A stretch of DNA of 32,000 bases, from NCBI GenBank assembly GCA_016699205.1, contig CP064964.1, positions 300,001 through 332,000 on the forward strand, written 5' to 3'. Each line of letters starts with the position of its first letter. Position 1 is the first letter of the stretch. Below are positions 7,958 through 26,270 of this stretch, piece by piece. The notes under the pieces were generated by a model. That model was not told where the DNA came from and ran no database searches. It was given only the letters and a program-made list of their open reading frames with translations. The DNA comes from Candidatus Saccharimonadota bacterium (GTDB lineage Bacteria; Patescibacteriota; Patescibacteriia; 2-12-FULL-60-25). Made by a program: the position numbers and the translations under genes.

Positions 7958-9409
7958 CTACATCATCTTCTTGCGGATGAAAGCCGGGATTTCCAATTCA
8001 TCATCCTCGCTGGCTGCTTTTTTAGGCGCCGGAGCTGACTGAGGCGCTTGTACCGGACGCGGATTCATCGGCGCGTAAACCGGTTGGCTTACATGCGGCT
8101 GCTGGGCAGCAGGAGCTGGGGCCGGAGCCATCTGGCGTGGCGCTGGTGCTGGTGCCGGGGCCGGAGCTTCTTCTGCGATTTCCGGCTGTCGCTGCGCCTC
8201 TGCTTCATTTGGCTGATTACCAAATGAGTTCAGCATGTTGGAGAAGAATCCTCCGCCCTGCTGATTTGCGGCTGGGCGCGGATTCTGGATCGGCATGCGG
8301 TTCAATGGCTCCGCTGGAGGCGCTTCATTAACGTAAGAGCGCGGCTGTTGCTGCGACATCGGCGCTGGGTTCGGTTTGGCCGGAGCGGGCGCTTGAGCTG
8401 GGGCCGGCGTTGGAGCAGGAGCGAAATTTACTTTGGCTGGTTTGGCAGAAACGGAATTCTTTTCAAAGCCAGTGGCGATGACCGTAATCTTGATTTCATC
8501 CTTCATGCTCTCATCAAGAATCGTGCCCCAGATCATGGCGACATTTGGATCTGCGGCCTGGCTGATAATCTTGGCCGCCTCCGTAACATCCTGCATTGCG
8601 AGGTTGGAACCGCCGGTGACAATGAAGAGCACGGCTTTGGCGCCGTCCATCGAGACTTCAAGAAGCGGCGATGCGACAGCAGCTTTGGCGGCGTCGATCG
8701 CGCGGTTATCGCCATGTCCGCGACCAATACCCATGAGAGCGGAGCCGCGACCAGCCATGACAGTGCGCACGTCGGCAAAGTCGACGTTAATCAAACCTGG
8801 AACGGTGATCGCCTCGGAAATACCCTGAACACCTTGACGAAGAACGTCGTCGACGGTTTCAAAGGCTTCAACCAAAGAAGTCTTCCGGTCGATGATCTGC
8901 AAAATGCGATCGTTCGGAATCGTAATGATGGCATCGACTTGTCCGACGAGTTTTTCAAAACCTTGCTCCGCAATTGCGCGGCGCTGAGCACCTTCAAAAG
9001 CAAATGGCTTGGTAACAACAGCAACCGTGAGCGCGCCTACTTCTTTTGCGATCGCGGCAACAACAGGGCCTGCGCCTGTTCCGGTTCCGCCTCCAAGTCC
9101 GCAAGTTACAAAAACCATGTCCGTGCCTTTGAGAAGCTCGCGAATTTCATCCGCGCTCTCCTCTGCGGCACGCTGCCCGACTTCGGGGTTCATGCCTGCC
9201 CCCAAACCGCGCGTGACCGTTTTACCAAGATGTACTTTTAACGTTGCTTGTGATTTGTGGAGTGCTTGAACATCCGTATTCATGGCGACAAACTCGACGC
9301 CGCGAATTTTGGAAGCGATCATGCGATCGACAGAAGAACCACCAGAGCCACCGACTCCGATGACTTTGATCTTCGCAAATGTTTCGATATCAGGTTTGAC
9401 TTCAGCCAT
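7958..9409 (-). CDS. ftsZ: cell division GTPase FtsZ with a long Pro/Ala-rich C-terminal linker
   Basis: GVGGSGGSSV, NTDVQAL and GGGTGTGAGPVVA tubulin signature. C-terminal conserved peptide DDELEIPAFIRKK. About 150 aa of PAPAPA/Q-rich linker lies between core and tail. Confidence 0.97.
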   Translation of the reverse strand: MAEVKPDIETFAKIKVIGVGGSGGSSVDRMIASKIRGVEFVAMNTDVQALHKSQATLKVHLGKTVTRGLGAGMNPEVGQRAAEESADEIRELLKGTDMVFVTCGLGGGTGTGAGPVVAAIAKEVGALTVAVVTKPFAFEGAQRRAIAEQGFEKLVGQVDAIITIPNDRILQIIDRKTSLVEAFETVDDVLRQGVQGISEAITVPGLINVDFADVRTVMAGRGSALMGIGRGHGDNRAIDAAKAAVASPLLEVSMDGAKAVLFIVTGGSNLAMQDVTEAAKIISQAADPNVAMIWGTILDESMKDEIKITVIATGFEKNSVSAKPAKVNFAPAPTPAPAQAPAPAKPNPAPMSQQQPRSYVNEAPPAEPLNRMPIQNPRPAANQQGGGFFSNMLNSFGNQPNEAEAQRQPEIAEEAPAPAPAPAPRQMAPAPAPAAQQPHVSQPVYAPMNPRPVQAPQSAPAPKKAASEDDELEIPAFIRKKMM

Positions 9410-9600: not shown

Positions 9601-10866
9601 CTACGGGATGAACGATTTGAAAATCTTCTTGAGAGGATTGGTTGCTTTCTTCAGCCATTGATCTCCCGCTTGCAAGCCACCCATGCGTCCGGAGCCTGCC
9701 GGGTCTCGCTCGTCTTCAAATCCGTATAAAAGCAAACCGATCGCTGTTGAAAAAGCCGGGTCATGCAACACCTCGCCGAGCGGCGATGAGATCTGTGGAG
9801 CCGGCGACAATGAAGCCGGTAGGCGCAGTGTCGTACGGGCCATCTCAACCATACCGCGGAGCTTGGAGCCGCCGCCGGTCAGAATCGCGCCAGCTGGAAG
9901 CAAACCTGAGCGCTCAATTTTACGAAGTTCTGCTTCTACTTTTTCAAATAATTCTTCTACACGAGCCTGTGCAATTTCCGACATGAAGCGCGGGCTTACC
10001 AATTCTGCTTCTGCAGCGCCGATCTCGCGGAGATCGACCATGTCATATTGATTTACCCCTTCTGGAATAGCGCTTACAAAAGAACGCTTAGCTGCTTCCG
10101 CGACATCAAGCGATGTACGCAAACCAATAGCAATATCGTTTGTAATATGATCTGCGCCGATTGGGATAACGGAAGCGTGGAGTAGTTCACCGTCCTCAAA
10201 AACAGCTACCGATGTCGTGGATGCACCGATGTTTACGAGAACAACACCTAGCTCGCGCTGACGCGAGGTCACGACAGCATCAGCGGCGGCGAGCGGCGAA
10301 AAAACAAGGCCGCTTACATCGACATTGGTGCGCATGACGGCTTGCGTCAGGTTTTTGACATGGCTTGATAGCCCCTGGATCAAACAGACTTCTGCTTCCA
10401 GACGCACGCCTTGCATGCCGACCGGGTTGCGGACCCCTGGCTGATCATCGACCGTAAAGCGTTGAGGGATACGATGAAGTATTTCAAAATTAGCCGGGTT
10501 CGCATTGGCTGATGCCATGTCGAGCACGCGTGCCTGGTCCTCTTCACGAATCTCAGAATCTGGTCGTGAAACACCAACAACGCCTTTAACTGTCTTCGCA
10601 TGAACATGAACTCCCCCGATTCCGATATAGGCATCGTTGATCGGAACGCCGATTTGGCGCTCGACGCGATCGAGACAGGCGGAAACGGCGGCGGTTGCAT
10701 CGTCCAAAGATTTGATAGCGCCTTTGGAGATACCGGCGGATGGAACTTCTACCGCACCAATCAAATTGATCGTCTCGCGCTTATCCTGACCAACAACAAC
10801 TTGGCCAACCGCCAAACGAATGGCGGAGCTTCCTAGGTCGATGCCGGCGAGAATGCGGTCCTTCAT
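9601..10866 (-). CDS. ftsA: cell division protein FtsA
   Basis: Actin-fold phosphate-1 motif GIDLGSSAIRLAV, DITNDIA-type and GGGSKLRG motifs, and a C-terminal amphipathic helix (LKKIFKSFIP). ATGA overlap with dgkA. Confidence 0.93.
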   Translation of the reverse strand: MKDRILAGIDLGSSAIRLAVGQVVVGQDKRETINLIGAVEVPSAGISKGAIKSLDDATAAVSACLDRVERQIGVPINDAYIGIGGVHVHAKTVKGVVGVSRPDSEIREEDQARVLDMASANANPANFEILHRIPQRFTVDDQPGVRNPVGMQGVRLEAEVCLIQGLSSHVKNLTQAVMRTNVDVSGLVFSPLAAADAVVTSRQRELGVVLVNIGASTTSVAVFEDGELLHASVIPIGADHITNDIAIGLRTSLDVAEAAKRSFVSAIPEGVNQYDMVDLREIGAAEAELVSPRFMSEIAQARVEELFEKVEAELRKIERSGLLPAGAILTGGGSKLRGMVEMARTTLRLPASLSPAPQISSPLGEVLHDPAFSTAIGLLLYGFEDERDPAGSGRMGGLQAGDQWLKKATNPLKKIFKSFIP

Positions 10867-14629: not shown

Positions 14630-17600
14630 TTAGGATCCTGGGCTTTGAACCGGGCCAGGCAATGGTACGCCTTCCCCTGGGAAGGTGTCTCCGTATTGAT
14701 GAGAACCATTACACAGCAGCAAGCCTCTGCCAGCGCCAGGGATCGTGATAGCTCCGCTACCGGCCTCCTGTGAGAACACGTGCCAATATTTACCCTTGCG
14801 GTCCAGCGGCTCATCCGAACATCCGGCATCGGTCGGAACACTTGTCGGAGGCTTCACAACGAAAAGGCGATCTTCCGTTACGATGCGCACCGTCGTCGAG
14901 ACACTCTCAAAATATTGGTAGGAAGGAATGCTGGGCGTGATGGTCGGGGACCAATCGACCAAATAATATCCGTAGCGGCCGGTTAGCGCCCAAGTTCCAC
15001 GTTTGTACTTAATGGTTTGAGGAGAGACATCAAAGCTGCCGCAGCCTACTGATCCATCACTGTGGAAACAGGCGAGGAAGCCATGTGGGTTTGCGCCATC
15101 AATATCCGGATTTCCTGGGCCGCCATAGTAGATGTCGCGCGTTGGTGCCATCGCCGTAGGCAATGTCACATGCGCATCGGTGAATCCGCCTGGCGGCAAT
15201 TCACCGTTCCATGTCTGGATGACGAGCGTCTCATCGCGGCCAACGCGGGGGGCGAGATAGATTTTGCCCTCCGTGTCATTGATACCGCGCGACAAGAAGT
15301 TATTATATCCGAATGTCTGCGACTCAAATGGCCAGTAACCGCCGTTACGAGCCTCATCTGGAGCTGTCAAACCTGAGGGCCAAATCTGACCTCTACACTC
15401 TGGGCGACCTGATGCATTACCCGTACACGGATTATCCTGATAGTAGTCGACGACGATGCGGTACTGAGAACAGGCTGCGACACGGTTGATGTTGTTGAAT
15501 CTGAATGTTCCGTCTGAGCCTGTATAGGTCTCACCGATGCGAACGCCTCGGCTGTAGAGCGTTACGCGAGCGTTTGGAACTGGCTGGTTGGAGTAGATGG
15601 CGTCGAAAACTTGGGCCGTAATTTCGCCGTCACCCTCTTCCTCGCTGCATCGAGCACAACCGTTGAATCCACAACCCGTATTACAACTTACTTGATCACC
15701 TCGCGGATCATGAGGTGTTGCGCACAAGGTGCCTGGAGCACAAGTGCTCGCGTTAGGCATACAAGCCGCTTCTGCGCCGATCGCAGGGAGCGCAGCGCGC
15801 GTCAAGCTTCCCGGAACCGATTCCGTATCCGTTGTGATGCTGAATCGACACAAACCGATATCAGAGATAGAGGTGGCATTACGGTTTACGCAGACAATTT
15901 CACCCGTTCGCGTGTCTCGAATATACGGATAGTGCGCGCAAGAGACCTCTCTCGCATAGTCGTAGCCGAGCTCGCGACAAGAAGGCGTCGGATCATTTGT
16001 CGTTGCCGGGTCTCCATCAAAGTCTGTGCGATCACACTGTTCAGGACCTTCTTTTACGGCGTTACCGCAGAATCCACCGGAACTAGCAACTTGGCGGCAC
16101 GTTGCGGAACAAGAGAGACAGGTCGATCCGTAGTCGGCATCACATGAGAGCGTGCCGTTTCTTGGGCCATTATCACATTCTTCTGTTCCAACGTTTACAA
16201 AGTTGTCGCCGCAGATATTGCGCTTACACAAGCTCGTGCAAGAATCGGTGTTGTTGCGGTTACCATCATCACACTCCTCTGCCGGATCGACGCGGCCATC
16301 GCCACAGGAACCGATTGGCTGACATGCTGACCAGTCATTGAATGAACAGGCATCGGCTAGAGTGGTATCACTCTTACAGGAACGGACGCGCTGTGTTGGG
16401 TATTGAATACAGGACCCTTCATCGCGTGTCGGAACGGTGAGGAGACAGTCAGCGTTGGTCGTACAGCTGTCGTCGAGCAAGCTATTTCCATTCATGTCGT
16501 TGGAACAAAGTCCAAGTGTTCCGGTACAGGCAAGCAACGCTCCAGCACCAGAGCCGCCACAAGTGAAGCCGGCGCCACAGTCGGCGTTGGTGTCACATGG
16601 CGAGAAGCGATTTGGTCCGTCGATACAGAGGGCTTTATTGGAAGCCTGTGTGTTTCCATCACACTGTTCATTTGGAGCGGTGATCGAGCCATCGCCACAG
16701 TAGGGAGCTGGTCCGCGGCAGTCGATGCTGCACGTTGAAGCCGGCGAACAGGTTCCAGGGGCACAGTACTGGCCGTTGGAAGCACCTTGATCGCAGGATT
16801 CGCCTGGCGAGAGACGACCATCACCGCAGTAGGCATCAAAGCCGGTACAGGTGCGGTTGCAGCGGCCGTAGGTTCCGTTCAAAGCTCCATCGTCACAGGT
16901 TTCTGGGACAGCGAGCGCCGTACAAACGATACTGGAAGATGCGGCATCGCGAGGATCGCGACACTCCTCTGCTGAACCCGGCGTGTTACAAGCTTGGCCA
17001 TAGCGGAAGCCGGCGCCACCCAAACACTGGTTGCGGTCGAGACGGCCGTTTCCACAGAGCGCGTTGGCGACACAGATACTTGAAGGCGAGTCGACGAAAG
17101 ACGTACAGCGATCACAGACTTGGAGCTTGGTTCCGCTTGGAACAGCGGCTGTGGAACAAGCGGCCGGGCGCGTATCGCCTACTTCACAAATTTCACCAGG
17201 ACCGATGACGCCGTTACCACAGATGGAATCGTTGCCGAATGAGCTGCCGTCACACAATCCGCCATATCTCCAGCTACCGCCTGTTGCGACACAGCTACCC
17301 GTTGAAAGCGGAGGGCCGCCAGGACCTGGGACCGTACAGTCGGAATCGACATTACAAACGGAATCGATGTTGGTACAGCGGCGGATTTCCGAAAGAAGGC
17401 GCGGTCGATAGCGGTCAGCAGACGGACCCTCCAATTCCGTGGAAAGCTCATAGCGCTGACCAGCGTTCAATGCGCGGTATTGATAGATGCGGGATACCGA
17501 GTGCTGGTTCAGATCTCCATACAAGGAGCACCGCCCGTTGCACAAATACCACAAGTTAAGAAACGGTTGACCGGATCTGCCGGAGGCGTTGTACCAAGCT

Positions 17601-17632
17601 CGGCGGTGAAGGCGCCCTGCCAGCTCGGCCAA
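14630..17632 (-). CDS. cysteine-rich repeat surface protein, probably the C-terminal part of a split giant gene
   Basis: At least 7 CG[ND]G/CGDN...GE.CD.GN units (for example SCGDGRVDPAEECDDGNRNNTDSC). A CarboxypepD_reg-like module (ARVTLYSRGVRIGETYTGSDGTFRF), then a beta-rich unassigned C-domain. The ORF has no ATG for about 380 codons and no signal peptide, and the tracked 'M' is a TTG inside the preceding ORF. The start is therefore unresolved. Confidence 0.7.
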   Translation of the reverse strand: MAELAGRLHRRAWYNASGRSGQPFLNLWYLCNGRCSLYGDLNQHSVSRIYQYRALNAGQRYELSTELEGPSADRYRPRLLSEIRRCTNIDSVCNVDSDCTVPGPGGPPLSTGSCVATGGSWRYGGLCDGSSFGNDSICGNGVIGPGEICEVGDTRPAACSTAAVPSGTKLQVCDRCTSFVDSPSSICVANALCGNGRLDRNQCLGGAGFRYGQACNTPGSAEECRDPRDAASSSIVCTALAVPETCDDGALNGTYGRCNRTCTGFDAYCGDGRLSPGESCDQGASNGQYCAPGTCSPASTCSIDCRGPAPYCGDGSITAPNEQCDGNTQASNKALCIDGPNRFSPCDTNADCGAGFTCGGSGAGALLACTGTLGLCSNDMNGNSLLDDSCTTNADCLLTVPTRDEGSCIQYPTQRVRSCKSDTTLADACSFNDWSACQPIGSCGDGRVDPAEECDDGNRNNTDSCTSLCKRNICGDNFVNVGTEECDNGPRNGTLSCDADYGSTCLSCSATCRQVASSGGFCGNAVKEGPEQCDRTDFDGDPATTNDPTPSCRELGYDYAREVSCAHYPYIRDTRTGEIVCVNRNATSISDIGLCRFSITTDTESVPGSLTRAALPAIGAEAACMPNASTCAPGTLCATPHDPRGDQVSCNTGCGFNGCARCSEEEGDGEITAQVFDAIYSNQPVPNARVTLYSRGVRIGETYTGSDGTFRFNNINRVAACSQYRIVVDYYQDNPCTGNASGRPECRGQIWPSGLTAPDEARNGGYWPFESQTFGYNNFLSRGINDTEGKIYLAPRVGRDETLVIQTWNGELPPGGFTDAHVTLPTAMAPTRDIYYGGPGNPDIDGANPHGFLACFHSDGSVGCGSFDVSPQTIKYKRGTWALTGRYGYYLVDWSPTITPSIPSYQYFESVSTTVRIVTEDRLFVVKPPTSVPTDAGCSDEPLDRKGKYWHVFSQEAGSGAITIPGAGRGLLLCNGSHQYGDTFPGEGVPLPGPVQSPGS
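16020..17380 (-). repeat. array of Myxococcus-type cysteine-rich repeats (protein level)
   Basis: Read in translation: CGNGVIGPGEICE, CGNGRLDRNQC, CGDGRLSPGESCDQG, CGDGSITAPNEQCDGN, CGDGRVDPAEECDDGN, CGDNFVNVGTEECDNG, CGNAVKEGPEQCD. Confidence 0.7.
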
Positions 17633-20600
17633 CGGCTGTTGCTCATGGTCTGCAAGAAGGAACCGGTCTGAAGATCAGGATATTTGCTTGTGCGTTCTTT
17701 GACGGACTCAAGCGAGTCGCTCATGCGCTGGAAGTCGGCGATGCGCTTGATGTCGCGCTGCATCTTGGTCTTGAAGCTGGCACAGCGGAGATTACGGTTC
17801 TGATTGAGACATTCCCAATCTGCCGTACAGGCAACAGAACGACCATCGGCACCGCGGAATGACTCACCGGCTACACGAGCGCCATCGGCCAAAGCGTAAA
17901 CACAGGCGTTCTGCGAATCTTCTTGCAGGTTTACGTTCAGGACAAAATTCTTGACCATCTGATCAAAAATATCGATCGTTTCTGGCTGTGCGTCCGGATT
18001 GCGGGAGATAACGTAAATATTTGGATAAATATCGCCGGAAGCGAGACCTGTCGTGTTTACAGCGCCGATGTAGACCGTGTTGCCATCTTGAACCGCTTCG
18101 TAACCATCGACCGTGATCGCTTTTGGCGAACCGGAGAAACCCTTGGAGGCGTACCAAGCAGATGGCGACTGGTGAAGTGGGTTGGCAACGATACGGATAC
18201 CGATACCATCGCCGCGGAGAGATGGTTCATTGAAGGTAAAGAGATATTGGCGAAGAATTCCGAGACCAGCGTCAACCGGAGACGGAGCCACACCCGCGAC
18301 ATCCATCGCTGGAAGATCATCCGCTGTACCGGCAGCGTTTTTGTCGCGGCAGTAGAGCGTCGAGAAGTTGTAGTAGACACCGCTTGCGGCAAATGTTGGT
18401 TCGTAGAGAGCAAGCGAATCGGAATCAAGACTGTCCGAGAATGGTGCGACGGTGCGTGCTGGCCACGGATTTTCACACAAAAGCACGGTCGCGAGTTCAC
18501 TGCCGCGAATAATACGATTCGTTGACGACGGAACCGTGATTTCATCGTGCGTGATACGGATGCCTGTTGAGACATACGCCGTACCGTTTTTGTTACGGGC
18601 GGCACCGGTTGCGCGGACAGGATCAGCACCCGGGGTTACACCGAGAATCGTGTCATCGGATGTGTTCCAGAGATCCCAAGTCCAGTCATATTCTGCGACC
18701 GTTGAGAGCGGGACGTTGCGTCCATCCTGCAAAGAAACCGGAACAGCCGTGTATGGATGCTCTTCCGCTGGAGCGACGTACAAGTTTGGATGCTCCGTGC
18801 TTAGATCGCGGACATCGATAGAGGAAACGGTACAGATGTTTGCGCCTGTGCGGAAATTCCACTGGATCGGGCCGTTGGATACGACGCCACGGAAGGTGCG
18901 GACACCATCCCTAACGGCCGGATTATCGAGCAAGTCATTGTCGCCGCGGAAGGTGATGCGGTATTCCGTATTTGGCTTGAGTGCACGCTCAAGCGAGAAC
19001 GTTACGATAGAACCCGTGCTCGTATTACTGGAATCGATGTTGAGGCGGCCGCGCACTTCTCCGACACAGAAGACATCGGCGTTGGCTGGCTGAGCGTTGA
19101 ACATCGAGATGAAATTCACCCAAGCCTTCTGCCACCATGGCAGGCCGGTTGTATCGATCTGCATGACGGTCGTGGTTGTGCCTGCGGGACAGACCGCTGC
19201 TGCGCCAACGATACGTTCAGCCACGACAAAGTTGGCGCGTACCGAACCTTCGTCGAGACGTGTGTTGAAATTAGCGGTGATGAGCGCGTTGCGGCAGATA
19301 CCCGTGCCGGTCGGAAGGGCTGGCGGATATTGCGAAACAACGGTGGGACGAGGGGCGCAGCAGCCGTGATCGTCGAGGCCGGTTCCGGCAGGACAAGATG
19401 ATTCTTGTGTGAATCCACACTGCAAGCCGTACGTTGCATTGCCCGTCTTGTCATCGTAGACAGCGCGGACGGTGGAGAGCATGCGGCCATCGGTATCCGG
19501 TTCACGATCACCAACAATTTCTGCGAGCTGGAGCGCGTCCGGCAAACCATCGCCAGAAGCGACTTCACAAGAGTTGATTTCACCCGGACCCGTGACGCCG
19601 TCGCCGCAGAATGAAGGGGTTCCGTAGTCTGGAGACGAGCCTTCCGCGAGACAGGTTGCGCTACAGCCGTCACCCTGGTTGCGATTGCCGTCGTCACAAT
19701 CCTCCCCTGCTCCGATAGAGCCGTTGCCACAGCAGTTACCAGCACCAGAACCCGAGCATGCTGACGTACCAGTTCTCAAACACGTTGTCGTGTCGCAGCC
19801 AGCCGGGAATACGCCGCCGACGCGGTCACAAGTTTCGCCTGGCTCAACCGTACCGTTACCACAAAGTGCGAGCACAGCTGAAGAACCCTCGTGGAGACAG
19901 ATCGAGCTGCAGCCGTCGCCGTTTGCGGTGTTGCCGTCGTCACAAGCTTCACCATCGCCAATGGAATTGTTTCCACAGGTTGAGCCGCCTTCGCTTGAAC
20001 CAAGAAGCTGACAGTCGCTGAAACAACCAGGCGTGGTTGAGGATGCCGCGCCAGGATCACATTGTTCACCGCGATCAAGAAGACCGTTGCCACAGCTTCC
20101 ACCGACAAGAGGACGCCACAAACAGCTTGAGTTACAGCTTGCGGATGGCGAACCATCATCACACTCTTCTCCGCCTCGTGAACCCGGAGGCAGTAAACGA
20201 CAGGCGTCGCCGTGAATCGTGCGGCAGCCTACAGCGCCAGCGCCCGAAGTCGCACATGCGCCGCTACCGGCTGCGTTGCGGCAGTAGTTGGCATCCGTTG
20301 TTTCAACAACGCGGTTTCCACAAGAAGCGACGCGGCCATCGAGACCAGCGGCTCCGCGCGGTGTGCAGCGATTTGAACAACCCGGACCAATCGCAGGATT
20401 TGTATCAACAAGACCATCGGCGACGGTAGAGCCATCGCCACCGTTTACGAATTTGGACACGGTTGGCGTCTGTTCAATCGACCAAGCAAAGGTGCGATCA
20501 ACGATCAGGGGCTCGCCTTCTGCGTTACACGAGTTGGCGCCGGAACGAGGCGTGGCCGTGAATGACTGACGTTCACCAACGGTTGTCTCGATCTTTTCTC

Positions 20601-23067
20601 CTGGAACCATCACGACAGCCTCGACGGTACAGCGGGCATTGTCGCCATCCTTCACACGGAAAATCCATGAGAAGCCTTCCGGGTCATTCAAGCCGGTGAG
20701 CGGGAGACCGGAGCGAGAGCGGAAGGAACCCATGCCGCCCAAAACCGTCATCTTGTAGAATCGTCCGCGCTGCAAAAGCGTTTCCGGAACGCCACCCGCA
20801 CCCGGACGTGTCGGCTCAATCACGAGATAACGAAGAGATGTATCGCCTGCCGGAGCGCCTGGGAGAGCAGTTAGACGGATCGGTGAAGCGCTCAAATCGA
20901 CGGTATCTTCAAAGGTGCGACAATTTTCATTGGTACACAATCGCAAAATAACATTATCGGTGTCGACGCTAGCCGCATCCATCGGAACGTTGAAGCGAGC
21001 CCAAATTGCTGCGTTCAAACAAGCTTCATCACAATTTGGTCCGTATGACTCGATCTTTGGAGGAACGAGACGGATAAAGAGATCGCCGCGACCATTGACC
21101 GAGCGGCCGCCGGAGACCGTGGATGCGTTTACGCGGACCGGATCAGCGCCGGTTTCTGCGTTGGAAGTGACAACCTGATTTTCTGAGACACGGCCGGCGA
21201 CGGAGTTATTCGTAACAGATGCGCGGCCATCGCTCGTGGTCCAAGACCAGTTGTAGACATCGCCACGCAAGACGATACAGGCATCATCTGCGGCTCGAGG
21301 GACGGCGTTGTAGTCTTGATCGATACCGACATCGTCCATGGTATGAGGTGATGGAACGACGTTGATCGAACCGACTTCACACAATGTTCCGGCCGTACGC
21401 GTTGTAAATGTGAAACAGTAAGCATTGCCGGAGCCACAATCATCCGCGTTCTCTCGCATCGGAACGTTGGTTGATGACTGGATGCCGGTCGTCAAAATAA
21501 CTTGGTACGTCGCGACGCCATCCCAAAGAGCGGCGGAGCGGAAACGAATGAAGCCTTGGCCGTCGCTTTCACCGATTTGCGGATAACCGGCGGCTGGTGA
21601 AACAGGTACGGTCGTCGTACATGGCGTTGCACCACCAGCGGTACATTGACGAATGACGAGGCTGGCTGTCGCACCGGAAATCGTGACGGTTGAAGCATTG
21701 AGCGGCGTGTTGAAACGAATGTAGATATCCGAGTTCACACATGCATTGTCACCACCGGTGCGGCCGGACCATGGGGACGGAGATGGCGGTCTTAAATCAC
21801 TACACTCTTCAATGACTCGCGGGTTAACCGGGAGAATACCGCTTGAAAGACGCCATGCGAACATCGCTGATGGCGAGGAGGCTGGACAAACACCGCTGCT
21901 ATCCGAACAGGCACCGCTGCGGCAGCAAACCGATCCGGCGACGGAACAGATGGAAGCATCTTCATTACAGTTACGAACGGCAAAATTTACCGAGTTTGAT
22001 GATTGGCCGGAGACACTCAAATTCACTTGTCCTGTGATCGCGGCTGTTGGTACGCGCGTGTCGACACGCGATGAGGTCCAATCCCCTGCGGTTACAACGG
22101 ATGGGACGCGCGTAGCGCCAGAGCCCGCGAATGTGACGGTTCCATCACCTCCAAAACGCTCACCGATCAAAGCGACTTCCGTATCAACCGGGCCAGCGAC
22201 CGGAACAATGGCACAAATACCTGGGCGAGGTGTTGCGGTGTTTACGACAAAAGGCAATGTATTGCTGCGAACCGTGTCCTGACGCTCAACCTCGACCTGA
22301 TAGGTTCCAGGCGACATGGCTTCATCGCCAAGACCGGCACGGATGGTGCGTGGAACTTTGACCGTGATCGTCGTATCAGACCAGAACGCGACGGAACAGG
22401 CGGCAGGAAAATCCGTGTCAGCGATCGCGACATCGGATGCGCCACGACGCAAGTACACGCGACCAACGCGTGAACCGAAGTTGCGGCCTTGAATCGTTAC
22501 GTACTCGCTAACAGGACCGTTATCTGGCGAGAGACTGACGATTTCCGGACCAGCCGTGACCGTGCGCTCATTAATACGATACGCAACGCTGTTGGAAAGG
22601 ATTCCGCCAGAACGAGCTGTTACGGCGTAGCTTGCCGGAGAAATAACCGGAGCATTGAGGGCGATACGATCATCAGCCCATGACAAGAAGGAAGAAATTT
22701 CTCGGTCGTTGAAGAAAACGCGATCCGATGAAGCACCGAGACCTGTACCAACGAGATCGGTGCGCTCCCCCGCCAAACCATTATTAGGATCAGCGGCACA
22801 CAAACCTGGGCGAGCAACATCGTTTACATCAAATGGATCGAGGCGCGGACCGCGATCATCGTTGGAAATATCATTTAAACCAGCTGCGTTGATGAGTTGG
22901 ATTGGGCCGTCAACAGCACCATCTGGAACGGCGACAACAACCTGCGTACGGGACCAGGTCGGGATACCGGCGGCGACACAGGCGGCAGGAGCGGTTGCGA
23001 CTTGGCCGTCGGCAAAGATGATCTGGCCGGTTGAGCTACCAAAGTTAGAACCGGAAATCGTTACCAA
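17509..23067 (-). CDS. giant cysteine-rich surface protein (IPT/TIG, SbsA/Big_5-like Ig modules, Cys-rich repeats); coding signal continues upstream to 23154
   Basis: 1852 codons. Four IPT/TIG-like modules (VTISGSNFG, TDLVGTGLG, VTIQGRNFG, VALIGERFG). Ig-like modules with the I.IRFN.P[LM][DN]..[ST]V pattern. Six CG[ND]G..GE.CD units. The tracked start is a TTG in the middle of an IPT module, and no signal peptide is present. Confidence 0.8.
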   Translation of the reverse strand: MVTISGSNFGSSTGQIIFADGQVATAPAACVAAGIPTWSRTQVVVAVPDGAVDGPIQLINAAGLNDISNDDRGPRLDPFDVNDVARPGLCAADPNNGLAGERTDLVGTGLGASSDRVFFNDREISSFLSWADDRIALNAPVISPASYAVTARSGGILSNSVAYRINERTVTAGPEIVSLSPDNGPVSEYVTIQGRNFGSRVGRVYLRRGASDVAIADTDFPAACSVAFWSDTTITVKVPRTIRAGLGDEAMSPGTYQVEVERQDTVRSNTLPFVVNTATPRPGICAIVPVAGPVDTEVALIGERFGGDGTVTFAGSGATRVPSVVTAGDWTSSRVDTRVPTAAITGQVNLSVSGQSSNSVNFAVRNCNEDASICSVAGSVCCRSGACSDSSGVCPASSPSAMFAWRLSSGILPVNPRVIEECSDLRPPSPSPWSGRTGGDNACVNSDIYIRFNTPLNASTVTISGATASLVIRQCTAGGATPCTTTVPVSPAAGYPQIGESDGQGFIRFRSAALWDGVATYQVILTTGIQSSTNVPMRENADDCGSGNAYCFTFTTRTAGTLCEVGSINVVPSPHTMDDVGIDQDYNAVPRAADDACIVLRGDVYNWSWTTSDGRASVTNNSVAGRVSENQVVTSNAETGADPVRVNASTVSGGRSVNGRGDLFIRLVPPKIESYGPNCDEACLNAAIWARFNVPMDAASVDTDNVILRLCTNENCRTFEDTVDLSASPIRLTALPGAPAGDTSLRYLVIEPTRPGAGGVPETLLQRGRFYKMTVLGGMGSFRSRSGLPLTGLNDPEGFSWIFRVKDGDNARCTVEAVVMVPGEKIETTVGERQSFTATPRSGANSCNAEGEPLIVDRTFAWSIEQTPTVSKFVNGGDGSTVADGLVDTNPAIGPGCSNRCTPRGAAGLDGRVASCGNRVVETTDANYCRNAAGSGACATSGAGAVGCRTIHGDACRLLPPGSRGGEECDDGSPSASCNSSCLWRPLVGGSCGNGLLDRGEQCDPGAASSTTPGCFSDCQLLGSSEGGSTCGNNSIGDGEACDDGNTANGDGCSSICLHEGSSAVLALCGNGTVEPGETCDRVGGVFPAGCDTTTCLRTGTSACSGSGAGNCCGNGSIGAGEDCDDGNRNQGDGCSATCLAEGSSPDYGTPSFCGDGVTGPGEINSCEVASGDGLPDALQLAEIVGDREPDTDGRMLSTVRAVYDDKTGNATYGLQCGFTQESSCPAGTGLDDHGCCAPRPTVVSQYPPALPTGTGICRNALITANFNTRLDEGSVRANFVVAERIVGAAAVCPAGTTTTVMQIDTTGLPWWQKAWVNFISMFNAQPANADVFCVGEVRGRLNIDSSNTSTGSIVTFSLERALKPNTEYRITFRGDNDLLDNPAVRDGVRTFRGVVSNGPIQWNFRTGANICTVSSIDVRDLSTEHPNLYVAPAEEHPYTAVPVSLQDGRNVPLSTVAEYDWTWDLWNTSDDTILGVTPGADPVRATGAARNKNGTAYVSTGIRITHDEITVPSSTNRIIRGSELATVLLCENPWPARTVAPFSDSLDSDSLALYEPTFAASGVYYNFSTLYCRDKNAAGTADDLPAMDVAGVAPSPVDAGLGILRQYLFTFNEPSLRGDGIGIRIVANPLHQSPSAWYASKGFSGSPKAITVDGYEAVQDGNTVYIGAVNTTGLASGDIYPNIYVISRNPDAQPETIDIFDQMVKNFVLNVNLQEDSQNACVYALADGARVAGESFRGADGRSVACTADWECLNQNRNLRCASFKTKMQRDIKRIADFQRMSDSLESVKERTSKYPDLQTGSFLQTMSNSRWPSWQGAFTAELGTTPPADPVNRFLTCGICATGGAPCMEI
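19560..20400 (-). repeat. array of Myxococcus-type cysteine-rich repeats (protein level)
   Basis: Read in translation: CGNRVVETTDANYC, CGNGLLDRGEQCDPG, CGNNSIGDGEACDDGNTANGDGC, CGNGTVEPGETCD, CGNGSIGAGEDCDDGNRNQGDGC, FCGDGVTGPGEINSCE. Confidence 0.7.
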
Positions 23068-23154
23068 GGTGCCTGGACGTCCATCTGGAGGCGTGATGCG
23101 GGAAATGATCGGCTGCTCTACACAAACACCACCGGAGCAGACGCCGCTCGCACA

Positions 23155-24375
23155 TTAGGAACCACTAGTACACGCGCCACCGGAACAGGCACCACAGCTT
23201 GCACCTCCGCAGTCGATATCGGTTTCATCTTCATCGCGTGCGCCGTTAAAACAATGGAGAGGGCGAACCATGACGGAAACCGTTGCACTGTCTCCCGTGT
23301 TGGAGTCGATATCATGCGCGGTGGCGCGGAGCGACATTGGACCTGGAGCAATTCCAGCCGTATCCCAGGCGACGTCGGCCGTCATATCGCGCACCGTTGA
23401 AGAGCCCGGAGCCGCACCGATGCCGATGGAATCGCTACCAACAAATGCTTCAATAAATGAAACGCCTGCGTCATCAGAAGCTTGGAGCGAAACGATTACG
23501 AGGTCGTCTGCCGGAACACTCTGTCCATTAAATGGCGAGGTGATTGCTGCTGTTGGGTCTGCCGTATCGACGAGGTTGCCGGTTGTAAAGCGTCCTTCAC
23601 AAACAGGAGAAAAACCTCCACAAGAGATCGTTTGACCAGTTGATGAGCGGAGACCGGAAGCGATCTGTGTAATGAATTCCGTATCGCCATCAAAACAATT
23701 GCGCGTTTCATTTGGAGCGGGACATGCGGCACTAGGAACAAATGTCGCGATTTGACCTGTTACGGTAAGCGTTCCGGCAACAGGTGCCGAGTCGGAAGCG
23801 CGCAAAACACGAATGTTAGCGTTTGCTGTTGTGCTGTCGATGTTACGGGAAAGGATGAAGCGAACTTCAATATTGCGGATCGGTACCGAGCCTCCCGGAG
23901 AAATCGAAACAACCTGGAATGCCGAGGAACCGCCGCCGCCTGGCAAGACACCGCCGCCACCAGGTCCACCGCCGCCTCCTCCCCCACCACCACCGCCCGT
24001 TGCACTCAAAAGTGAATTGATAACGAAGCTTGCAATTGCCCAAGATGACAAAATCAGAACAACGCCGATGATGGCGTTACGAATCATGAGTTTGGCGCGC
24101 TCGACTTGCTCTGCATTACCGCCGCTCGTCATCCACAAAAAGCCTGCATACAAGATGAGGCAGAGCATGATGATCGCCAGCAAGCCAAGTGTCACGTTGA
24201 TGATGCGTGCTGCGATGACACGCGGATCTGTTGCACTCAAACCAATGGTACCGCCGACCTCAGCCAAACCGGCGTCGACTTGGGCATGGACGACGGTTGG
24301 AACAAACGCCATCGACCCAGTCATGAGTGACAGGGTCGTCAGGAAGGCGAGGGCCAAGGAGCGGAGCTTGATCAT
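23155..24375 (-). CDS. VirB2/TrbC-like (CPR 'T4SS pilin'-type) N-domain fused to Ig-like modules and a Cys-rich tail
   Basis: Signal peptide ending VHA/Q. Two hydrophobic helices flank YAGFLWMTSGGNAEQVERAKLMIRNAIIG. A G11-PGGGG hinge, then two Big_5-like modules. Ends HCFNGARDEDETDIDCGGASCGACSGGACTSGS-TAA. ATGA overlap with the upstream paralog. Confidence 0.7.
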   Translation of the reverse strand: MIKLRSLALAFLTTLSLMTGSMAFVPTVVHAQVDAGLAEVGGTIGLSATDPRVIAARIINVTLGLLAIIMLCLILYAGFLWMTSGGNAEQVERAKLMIRNAIIGVVLILSSWAIASFVINSLLSATGGGGGGGGGGGPGGGGVLPGGGGSSAFQVVSISPGGSVPIRNIEVRFILSRNIDSTTANANIRVLRASDSAPVAGTLTVTGQIATFVPSAACPAPNETRNCFDGDTEFITQIASGLRSSTGQTISCGGFSPVCEGRFTTGNLVDTADPTAAITSPFNGQSVPADDLVIVSLQASDDAGVSFIEAFVGSDSIGIGAAPGSSTVRDMTADVAWDTAGIAPGPMSLRATAHDIDSNTGDSATVSVMVRPLHCFNGARDEDETDIDCGGASCGACSGGACTSGS

Positions 24376-26270
24376 GGTGTTGGGGTGAGGTCGGAACAGA
24401 CGCCGCTTTGCGAGACGCCGTCACAGCAATTTGGTTCGCTTGAGTCGGCGGTGCAGCGGTCGGAAGCGGCTGGATTGAAGCAGTTCTGGTAAACGTTCTG
24501 GACGCCGGAGTGAACGATTGGCTGATAGGTCGGCTGAACGGCACCGGGAGCAGTGGAGGAAGCTGGCGAGTAGAGACGGTGGTCAATCGTGAGACGGCCT
24601 TTGGTGGCGATGTCGCCGACCCCTGCTAGCGCACCCGTTTCAGTCAGAGGATCTTGCGAAAGCGACCACCACCAGGTGTCGGCCATGCTTGAAGGTTCGT
24701 TGGTTTGAATCTCGACCGTGTCCGAGTTGACCGTGGATGATTGAAGGACGGAATCAAAGTCAGCTGTTGGATTGCGATCGAGCGGAAGATTGCTTGAATC
24801 GATGAGATCACCGGCAATTGGGTCTGTGGATTCAATACGGGGGGCGGAAAGATTTGGCGCGCCACGTGTACCAAAGGACCAGCCGTAGTTGTCGTTACCC
24901 GGGGTTGAGTCGGCGTCGGAGCCTTGGGCGTCGCCGTCGCCATTACCATCGAGCGCGTTTCCAACCATGTCGGTGATACCGTCGTAACCGGAGCCTGAGA
25001 GGAAGGCTTGCGGGGGCGTGTCGGACAATGTTGGCGCTCTCGCGATCACGGCGATCGAGGCGTCCGTTGGCAAACAATAAACCGTACTGCCGCAGGAGTT
25101 GGTTCCACAAGCGAGATCGGTTGTAAATTCTACGGTGCGGTAGCCATTGCTAATCCGGAATTCACCGGAAGGGCGCACCTCTGGACCGGATGCAGGAGTC
25201 GCGTTGACCTCGATATTGGTAAAGCCTGCGGTACCGTTCCATACACCGGCAGCGGCGGTTGGATCGACAGGTTCATTGAAATTGATTTGAACGACGATGT
25301 TTGGCGCAAATGTACCGCCATCGGAAGGAATAACAGCCGTGATACGCGGCGGAGTGTTATCGACAACGGTTGAGACCTGGAATTGCCAACGATAGCCGCC
25401 GGAGAAGGCACCGCCAAAAGCCTGCGTACCGTCAGCAAGAACGATGCCGGAGCTTCCGCCGAGCAACTCGACGGTGTAGTCGGTGTTGCTGGTTGGGTTG
25501 CCCAGCAACTCAACAGGACGAATGACAAACGTTTTGCGGTCTGGGGTAAAACGGACGCTTGCCTGAGCCGAGGTCAGAGCCGTGCTGCGATCACTCGTGG
25601 GATAGATCTTGATCGCGTCGTCGTTTAGGCCGTTGATTGTGCCGGAAGTCGCCTCGGTCCAGTCCTTGATGAAGGAGTCGACGCGAATCGGTTCCTTAAA
25701 AGTGACAACGATCGGCGTGTTACGCGGAACGCCGGTTGCATCGCGCTGTGGAAGATGTGTCTCGATGATGCCGCTACCAAGAGAACCAGCAGAACCCGGA
25801 AAGCCAAAGCCACCGCCGCCAAACGGACCGGTACCTGTACCGCCGAAACCGGTAACACCAGCGAGCTGAGCAAGAATAAAGTTTACGATTGCGAAGGAGG
25901 ACGCAATAATGATCAACCCGATGATCGCATTACGGATGTAAGATTTTGCTTGTTCAATTTTTGCCGAATCGCCGCCAGACGTCATCCAAAGGTAACCTGC
26001 GTAGAGCAAGAGACCGAGGAGAATGATGCCGACAAAGCCGAGCGCGACATTAATGATGCGGCCGATGATGGTAAAAAGATCTGCTCCCCCACCGATACCG
26101 GCCTGGGTTCCGATGACTTCAAGATTCTCTTGCGAGGTTTGTGCAAAAACCGGAAGAACGAATGACAAGCCAAGCAGGGCGACAAACGTAAAAACCGCCA
26201 TCGACAAAAGCGGTCGCACGGCAGTTAACCGTTGTTTCAAAGTCCTTACACGGGATCCGTTCTCAAGCAT
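24372..26270 (-). CDS. VirB2/TrbC-like (CPR 'T4SS pilin'-type) N-domain fused to about three Ig-like modules
   Basis: Signal peptide ending VFA/Q. Helices flank YAGYLWMTSGGDSAKIEQAKSYIRNAIIG. Gly-rich hinge GFGGTGTGPFGGGGFGFPG. Big_5-like modules (PRNTPIVVTFKEPIRVDS..., IVVQINFNEPVDPT...). Cys-rich C-terminus. The start is ATG 26270 or ATG 26201. Confidence 0.7.
   Translation of the reverse strand: MLENGSRVRTLKQRLTAVRPLLSMAVFTFVALLGLSFVLPVFAQTSQENLEVIGTQAGIGGGADLFTIIGRIINVALGFVGIILLGLLLYAGYLWMTSGGDSAKIEQAKSYIRNAIIGLIIIASSFAIVNFILAQLAGVTGFGGTGTGPFGGGGFGFPGSAGSLGSGIIETHLPQRDATGVPRNTPIVVTFKEPIRVDSFIKDWTEATSGTINGLNDDAIKIYPTSDRSTALTSAQASVRFTPDRKTFVIRPVELLGNPTSNTDYTVELLGGSSGIVLADGTQAFGGAFSGGYRWQFQVSTVVDNTPPRITAVIPSDGGTFAPNIVVQINFNEPVDPTAAAGVWNGTAGFTNIEVNATPASGPEVRPSGEFRISNGYRTVEFTTDLACGTNSCGSTVYCLPTDASIAVIARAPTLSDTPPQAFLSGSGYDGITDMVGNALDGNGDGDAQGSDADSTPGNDNYGWSFGTRGAPNLSAPRIESTDPIAGDLIDSSNLPLDRNPTADFDSVLQSSTVNSDTVEIQTNEPSSMADTWWWSLSQDPLTETGALAGVGDIATKGRLTIDHRLYSPASSTAPGAVQPTYQPIVHSGVQNVYQNCFNPAASDRCTADSSEPNCCDGVSQSGVCSDLTPTP

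Follow-up and report, generated by a model that had tools for sequence, protein, structure and literature searches.

A predicted giant surface protein gene of a Candidatus Saccharimonadota bacterium, recently inactivated or mis-assembled

The stretch of DNA analysed here (the window, 32,000 nucleotides (nt); positions 300,001 to 332,000 of contig CP064964.1, assembly GCA_016699205.1) comes from a Candidatus Saccharimonadota bacterium and carries three consecutive open reading frames (ORFs) of 406, 1852 and 1000 amino acids (aa), whose coordinates, frames and translations are all given for the minus strand. By comparison with homologous sequences, the region 14630..24375, which occupies 30% of the window, is assigned to one gene for a giant (~3,290-aa) predicted cell-surface protein of the Patescibacteria (candidate phyla radiation, CPR). 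We found that this gene is broken by a premature TAA between the 406-aa and 1852-aa ORFs and, relative to genomes of the same species, by a 130-nt deletion at the junction of the 1852-aa and 1000-aa ORFs.

The 406-aa and 1852-aa ORFs share one frame and are parted only by the TAA at 23155-23157. Protein-like sequence runs on across this stop (...CTSGS, stop, CASGVCSGGVCVEQPIISRITPPDG), and the TIG domain sequence PIISRITPPDGRPGTLVTISGSNFG starts ahead of the TTG at 23067, the mechanical "start" of the 1852-aa ORF. The codons of the 1000-aa ORF begin at 17632-3k (such as 17515 and 17512), one nucleotide 5' of the 1852-aa frame, and this downstream frame is free of stops upstream to 17674, with a -1 overlap of ~55 codons; the codon positions bear out the relation claimed in an earlier reading made from the letters and their ORFs (the sequence-only reading). 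The Cys-rich repeat family that this reading saw in both ORFs corresponds to Pfam DUF4215, which matched the two of them. The long ATG-free run that it described at the head of the 1000-aa ORF stands as well, although the earliest ATG is codon 393 (position 16495), where it had given about 380 codons. Its remark that no Shine-Dalgarno motif precedes this ORF has no diagnostic value for starts in this genome, because none of the 12 ATG-start genes in the window (such as 7958..9409, 9601..10866, and 24372..26270) shows such a motif within the 25 nt upstream. The conceptual fusion of the three ORFs, expected at about 3250 aa, came out at 3248 aa with the TAA as a piece boundary inside the same gene, and neither a further stop or frame shift nor another in-frame TAA was found within this 3,248-codon reconstruction.

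Table 1. Open reading frames, pieces of the disrupted gene, close relatives and natural two-gene loci (positions refer to the window unless a locus is named; nt, nucleotide identity to the window).
Feature	Position or source	Strand	Remarks
ORF	23155..24375	minus	406 aa; ATG start
ORF	17509..23067	minus	1852 aa; TTG start; terminus ...GGAPCMEI, then TGA 17509-17511
ORF	14630..17632	minus	1000 aa; TTG start
Gene piece 1	23158..24375	minus	Codons 1-406; colinear with the N-terminus of single-ORF orthologs
Premature in-frame TAA	23155..23157	minus	GAA (Glu407) in same-species L105
Gene piece 2	17516..23154	minus	Includes 29 codons ahead of TTG 23067
Deletion scar	17515..17516	minus	TGTATGGA / GATCTGAAC
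Out-of-frame tail ATC TGA	17509..17514	minus	Upstream frame past the scar
Gene piece 3	14630..17515	minus	-1 frame, GAT (Asp) 17515-17513 to TAA 14630-14632
Chance-open extension of the downstream frame	17516..17674	minus	Includes TTG 17632
Close relative L100/L105	GCA_963851785.1		94.6-98.3% nt; one 3294-aa ORF
Close relative L101	JGI 3300056827		97-99% nt in most aligned blocks; 3298 aa
Close relative L103	JGI 3300056789		~84-97% nt (most blocks 84-90%); 3291 aa
Close relative L112	JGI 3300049437		fn3 protein 98.5%; 3289 aa
Close relative L114	JGI 3300048074		Partial contig; uninterrupted across the junction
Natural two-gene locus	L060:7947-12941
Natural two-gene locus	L075:7884-11750

Piece 1 of the gene contains an N-terminal hydrophobic, signal-like segment, a T4SS_pilin (PF18895) membrane domain, a poly-Gly linker, and Big_5/Big_7 Ig-like domains (Pfam). 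Piece 2 holds TIG/IPT, Big_5, DUF4215/TIGR02232 Cys-rich repeats, and the initial two-thirds of a conserved module (GILRQY...DGYEA...DWEC...SRWPSWQ...DPVNRFLTCG.C); piece 3 holds the remainder of this module (SRIYQYRAL...YELSTELE), more Cys-rich repeats, CarboxypepD_reg, and a C-terminal domain. The domain order of the reconstructed protein (Pfam and NCBIfam) runs from the hydrophobic segment and PF18895, through poly-Gly, Big_5/Big_7/TIG and DUF4215/TIGR02232, to CarboxypepD_reg, with the hydrophobic segment in piece 1 only, and the same combination occurs in the intact ortholog L020 and in the gene tables of L100-L112. From these domains, the protein may act at the surface as an adhesin or anchor; the literature searched yielded neither a description of the family nor an experimentally established function. 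Long Gly runs lie directly past the membrane domain both in 23155..24375 (GGGGGGGGGGGPGGGG, residues ~125-150) and in the product of 24372..26270 (GFGGTGTGPFGGGGFGFPG, residues ~140-165), and are presumably flexible linkers in both pilin-domain proteins. At the end of the 1852-aa ORF, TGA 17509-17511 is merely the earliest stop encountered once the frame is lost. The chance-open extension that ends at 17674 is taken as non-coding in the downstream frame, since homology in that frame begins only at 17515 and the conserved sequence upstream sits in the other frame.

Of the ortholog loci (L numbers), 16 came from scanning species-representative genomes and 80 from scanning metagenomes. Close-relative contigs were picked via the 90% cluster (14 other sequences) of the window fn3 protein, which is 100% identical to NCBI QQR61140.1, and seven close relatives (L100/L105, L101, L102, L103, L112, L114, and L117) were compared at the junction. 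In four of them (L100/L105, L101, L103, and L112) the whole gene is one ORF of 3289-3298 aa. The ORF stop of L100/L105 aligns with the window stop, and the start of L100 is the window ATG by back-calculation from the 3294-aa product, the start codon of L105 being outside the alignment. The genes of L102 and L117 are broken, but at sites other than the window lesions. Among the contigs long enough to show the gene, one ORF of ~2,900-4,080 aa passes over both lesion sites, colinear with the three pieces, at ~45 loci of more distant Patescibacteria. Single-ORF orthologs include L020, with an open frame of 3280 aa and 79% identity over residues 1-3248; L004, with 3294 aa and 76% identity; and L005, L006, L007, L011, L016, L024-L030 and others. 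The continuity of orthologs, proposed earlier as a check, was thereby found in distant and close relatives, and the assignment of the three ORFs to one gene agrees with it. The records of L006-L009, L012, L016, and L017 are titled "uncultured Gammaproteobacteria bacterium" and protein P0001 is named "Bacteroidota bacterium"; the bins of these Patescibacteria-type loci are probably mislabelled.

An initial protein search had returned four fragmentary matches, of which P0002 and P0003 start or end near the junction. The conserved break near the junction that these two suggested was rejected, as their contigs are unreliable: L002/L003 have 1.3x coverage and genes fragmented throughout, and L001 contains several +1 shifts, in the neighbouring fn3 gene too (two frames, L001:14525-15185), whereas its near relative L023 is uninterrupted. 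Split genes also occur in other contigs of the set, such as FtsZ in L101:13509-14961 (62+438 aa) and pyruvate kinase in L117:17042-17900 (118+191 aa); L102:1273 is a further site of this kind. Essential genes are split in contigs of JGI samples 3300056624, 3300056759, and 3300056827, which thus carry indel errors, and their frame breaks are not to be read as biology.

The nature of the junction followed from the same-species comparison. The same-species genomes (L100/L105, L101, and L102) have 94.6-98.4% nucleotide identity to the window. In L100, L101, and L102, the 58 nt to the left and the 63 nt to the right of the boundary between 17516 and 17515 match the window exactly, and these flanks enclose 130 extra nt (CAATGCC...CTACAAC), that is, 43 codons plus one nucleotide. 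L103, at ~88% nucleotide identity, has 130 nt at the same place; the gap is 121 nt against L004, L005, L022, L112, L114, and L117, 127 nt against L020 and L021, and 115 nt against L024. All of these lengths are 3n+1, and a segment of 121-130 nt is present in all seven close relatives. From 17515 onwards, piece 3 is 98% identical to L100 at the nucleotide level. The frame offset is thus a by-product of the deletion of 43 codons and one nucleotide. The sequence-only reading had correctly placed the break within about 20 nt of 17509; the cause it proposed, a 1-nt deletion or a -1 slip, gives way to the 130-nt deletion, and its conceptual fusion of about 3250 aa falls short of the native protein by 43 residues.

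The lost segment encodes a conserved Cys-rich loop (...DNADC...STCWNPTSRNFVCPRYN), and the lost peptide is (D)NADCAAGDTCRTRSVAAGDVYDGIETSTCWNPTSRNFVCPRYN. The loop, C..D.DC..G..C...DP.TC(W/Y)N....(F/Y).C, lies between ...DPVNRFLTCG.C and SR.YQYR in 16 of the 16 orthologs from the genome collection and is missing from the window. A separate alignment had been pre-selected for CW..C, and its invariance at these residues is by construction. No microhomology or shared bases were found at the L100 boundaries (...ATGGA/CAATG... and ...CTACAAC/GATCTG...), no flanking direct repeat appeared at the deletion in the alignments of the relatives, and no copy of the missing segment was found elsewhere in the window. 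The junction itself forms a palindrome, AGATCT (GGAGATCTGA, window 17510-17519), which is probably a coincidence.

The second lesion is simpler. L105 reads TCC GAA TGT where the window reads TCC TAA TGT, and the position is open in 14 orthologs, which have E, Q, D, M, or S there. By this comparison the TAA is assigned to a single G-to-T nonsense substitution of Glu407, a one-base relation on which the sequence-only reading was silent. TAA is also the commonest stop codon in the window, ending 8 of the 18 ORFs.

The junction falls in a conserved module of ~350 aa (window 17700-18600 and 17300-17515, minus strand) with the pattern ...RD.KR.ADF...YP...SRWPSW...P.DP.N...C(W/Y)...Y.Y...Y.L..LE. The module gave weak matches to T2SSG (pseudopilin) of Pfam in 5 of 46 orthologs (best E = 0.0034), and possibly represents a globular, pilin-like domain within the giant protein. 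No relative came up when PDB sequences were searched with a profile of the module, and the AlphaFold2 model of the module (P0001) was unusable, with a predicted local distance difference test score (pLDDT) of 43. In a distant Patescibacteria clade (L060, L075, L081, L083, L091-L097, L082, L085, and L089) two genes occur naturally at this locus. The second of them (580-1660 aa) has an ATG of its own, encodes a signal-like N-terminus (e.g., MKKAKLAIFFGFFIIATLFFVYRESFAQ / SAGTSDAIGVRIIPNPNHYS), and begins exactly where the conserved module (DAIG.R..NP.H.SP..WY..GF.GSP..VDGYEA) does. This natural split corresponds to residue ~2045 of the window protein; the window break is at residue 2288, within the module and ~240 codons further on. 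The family thus exists in fused as well as split forms.

The giant gene lies in a conserved neighbourhood. Around it lie genes for a 632-aa paralog that shares its N-terminal domain, for two proteins with TSP3 repeats and for an fn3 protein, and then those for FtsA, FtsZ, HtrA, and pyruvate kinase; YqeY, S21, and HisRS lie upstream of the 632-aa paralog and the giant gene. The relatives share the order HisRS-S21-YqeY-632-aa paralog-giant gene-TSP3-TSP3-fn3-YbeY-...-FtsA-FtsZ. In the window, the flanking genes (the 632-aa paralog, both TSP3 genes, fn3, FtsA, FtsZ, HtrA, pyruvate kinase, and HisRS) are of full length and keep the syntenic order. In L105, a second giant gene (L105:1-2653; 3289-aa product, without a recorded Pfam match) lies ~9.7 kb upstream, outside the stretch that corresponds to the window.

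Based on these comparisons, a G-to-T change would have turned the GAA of Glu407 into TAA. In addition, a blunt deletion of 130 nt at the 17516/17515 boundary would have stripped 43 codons of a conserved disulfide-rich loop and put all that follows in the -1 frame; the upstream frame would then terminate two codons on at TGA 17509. Only the 406-aa N-terminal fragment, with the signal-like segment, the pilin-like anchor and two Ig domains, would still be made and exported, and the 1852-aa and 962-aa remainders (~2,840 codons), without start codon context or signal peptide, would be silent. We consider it probable, at roughly 0.6, that the gene carries two private loss-of-function lesions and represents a real, very young pseudogene or null allele in the sequenced population, with no recoding. 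Both lesions are missing from all close relatives examined. They are of two unlike types in a single gene, with ~22 kb of flanking genes clean, and the presence of both in one gene spanning 30% of the window fits a dead gene accumulating hits. As in an ordinary bacterial pseudogene annotated as "frameshifted; internal stop", a nonsense substitution and an out-of-frame deletion have interrupted one ancestral ORF that is whole in orthologs and in same-species genomes, and the fragments downstream have neither their own start nor their own export signal; the window copy differs in being very young, with no further decay or rate acceleration, and in that an artefact is also in play. The ratio of nonsynonymous to synonymous substitution rates (dN/dS), with L020 and L004 as references, is 0.06-0.12 for every piece (0.06-0.07 in piece 3), with dS near saturation, and the terminal branch of the window is 0.074 aa substitutions per site, compared with 0.105 for intact L020 and 0.131 for L004 (three-point method). 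Neither relaxed selection nor further decay was seen in the window copy by dN/dS, branch length, or open frames, and the low dN/dS with the unlengthened branch indicates that the lesions are either very recent or assembly artefacts.

Several points weigh against a real null allele. The presence of the lesions in the organism, rather than only in the assembly consensus, is something we infer, and a search for another contig bearing this pair of lesions found none; exact matches for the 406-, 246-, 440-, and 632-aa products of the window were likewise lacking, as were hits in an exact search of metagenome contigs with the left-flank DNA. The family is often broken in metagenome assemblies (L037 against L036, L069 against L068, L102, L117, L001, and L002/3), and sequencing errors account for at least some of these breaks, given the split FtsZ or pyruvate kinase genes on those contigs. 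The lack of further decay, which leaves 1852 and 962 codons open, would fit an artefact as well as a very recent event. On this explanation the gene is intact in the organism, and the gap and/or the TAA arose in assembly, curation, or polishing, or from a minority variant taken as the consensus. The segment held by all seven close relatives, the single intact ORF in four of them, and the unrelaxed constraint on the window copy are in keeping with it, as are the frequent breaks in assemblies of this ~10-kb gene, in some contigs beside split essential genes, and a 124-nt out-of-frame deletion of similar size that separates the otherwise 99.9-100% identical L069 and L068. However, the lesions are of two kinds, a transversion that gives TAA and a blunt deletion of 130 nt, and both would have had to fall in one gene between clean flanks of ~22 kb; the deletion has no flanking repeat or microhomology able to collapse a de Bruijn graph, and a stop-creating substitution is an atypical assembler error. 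An artefact seems somewhat unlikely. Private lesions occur elsewhere in the family: the 124-nt deletion lies at ~7217 in L069 (L068 7093-7213), L037 has a 1-nt deletion (~6545) relative to the 99.99% identical L036, and L022 has an in-frame TGA (709-711). The size of the L069 deletion, near that of the window, may reflect biology or an assembly effect. That the lesions are real and belong to a recurrent, strain-level switching-off of the giant surface protein in natural CPR populations is a tentative and rather improbable extension.

Two explanations would leave the gene in working order. Programmed recoding, with a -1 frameshift near 17509-17674 and read-through of the TAA at 23155, would yield a full-length protein, and the geometry alone, a ~55-codon -1 overlap and an in-frame stop within coding sequence, recalls dnaX, the IS3-family transposases, and the phage tail chaperone G/GT, in which two long ORFs overlap at -1. 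Here, in contrast, a scan of 17509-17676 found no X XXY YYZ slippery heptamer in the upstream frame, in line with the sequence-only reading, and there is no stimulatory structure at the right spacing: the RNA fold of 17400-17530 has z = -1.41, 19 of 200 shuffles fold as well (pseudoknots being outside the model), and a stable hairpin begins only ~35 nt past the stop. The two-frame layout is absent from every ortholog, same-species genomes included, and the shift coincides with the 130-nt deletion, whose 3n+1 length fully accounts for the offset. A simple -1 slip could not restore the normal protein, because 43 codons of the conserved Cys/Trp loop are gone. As for the TAA, this codon is the main terminator and the same-species genome has GAA at the site; UAAU (TAA followed by T) is a strong stop signal in the termination contexts of E. 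coli. Recoding is already effectively refuted, and the earlier preference for an indel, a pseudogene, or an assembly error over programmed frameshifting was right. Read-through of TGA 17509 under code 25 (TGA = Gly) was also tried and rejected, since by inspection the product is not protein-like and another TGA follows 17 codons on. A functional split, in which two or three polypeptides made separately from the fragments would still cooperate, would resemble the natural two-gene loci, where the C-terminal third is encoded apart from the pilin-anchored N-terminal part by a second gene with an ATG and a signal-like N-terminus. In its favour, the three pieces in the window remain open and look constrained. 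Yet the natural split is ~240 codons upstream, whereas the break in the window interrupts the module itself and takes out a loop that the examined one-gene orthologs conserve. Neither piece 2 nor piece 3 has an ATG close to its 5' end (the earliest in piece 3 is codon 393) or, by inspection, a signal-like N-terminus, and the same-species genomes are unsplit. The window is not an instance of the two-gene architecture, because its break lies inside the module with neither start nor signal, and a functional split is highly unlikely. Two separate genes, the second with a start and a signal, had been named earlier as contrary to a broken single gene; they occur only in the distant clade, with another boundary, and not in the close relatives.

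The locus is a recently inactivated or mis-assembled copy of an already known kind of giant CPR surface protein. In domain content (PF18895, Ig-like, and DUF4215/TIGR02232 "myxococcal cysteine-rich repeat"), in synteny, and in the intact length of 3,289-3,298 aa in close relatives, it resembles other giant CPR/Patescibacteria proteins of this type, from which the window copy differs in being broken. For annotation, the three ORFs are best entered as a single disrupted gene rather than as three hypothetical proteins or as a recoding site. The case also indicates that a -1 offset can conceal a large 3n+1 deletion, which was decided here by same-species comparison and not by motif hunting. If the switching-off of the protein were indeed recurrent, the null alleles in L022, L037, and L069 would suggest selection against its display, such as by phage or through host-cell recognition, rather than sequencing noise. 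If the lesions in the window are real, this strain has newly lost its largest surface protein while sister strains retain it, and such a natural knockout could help to find the role of a widespread, uncharacterised CPR protein.

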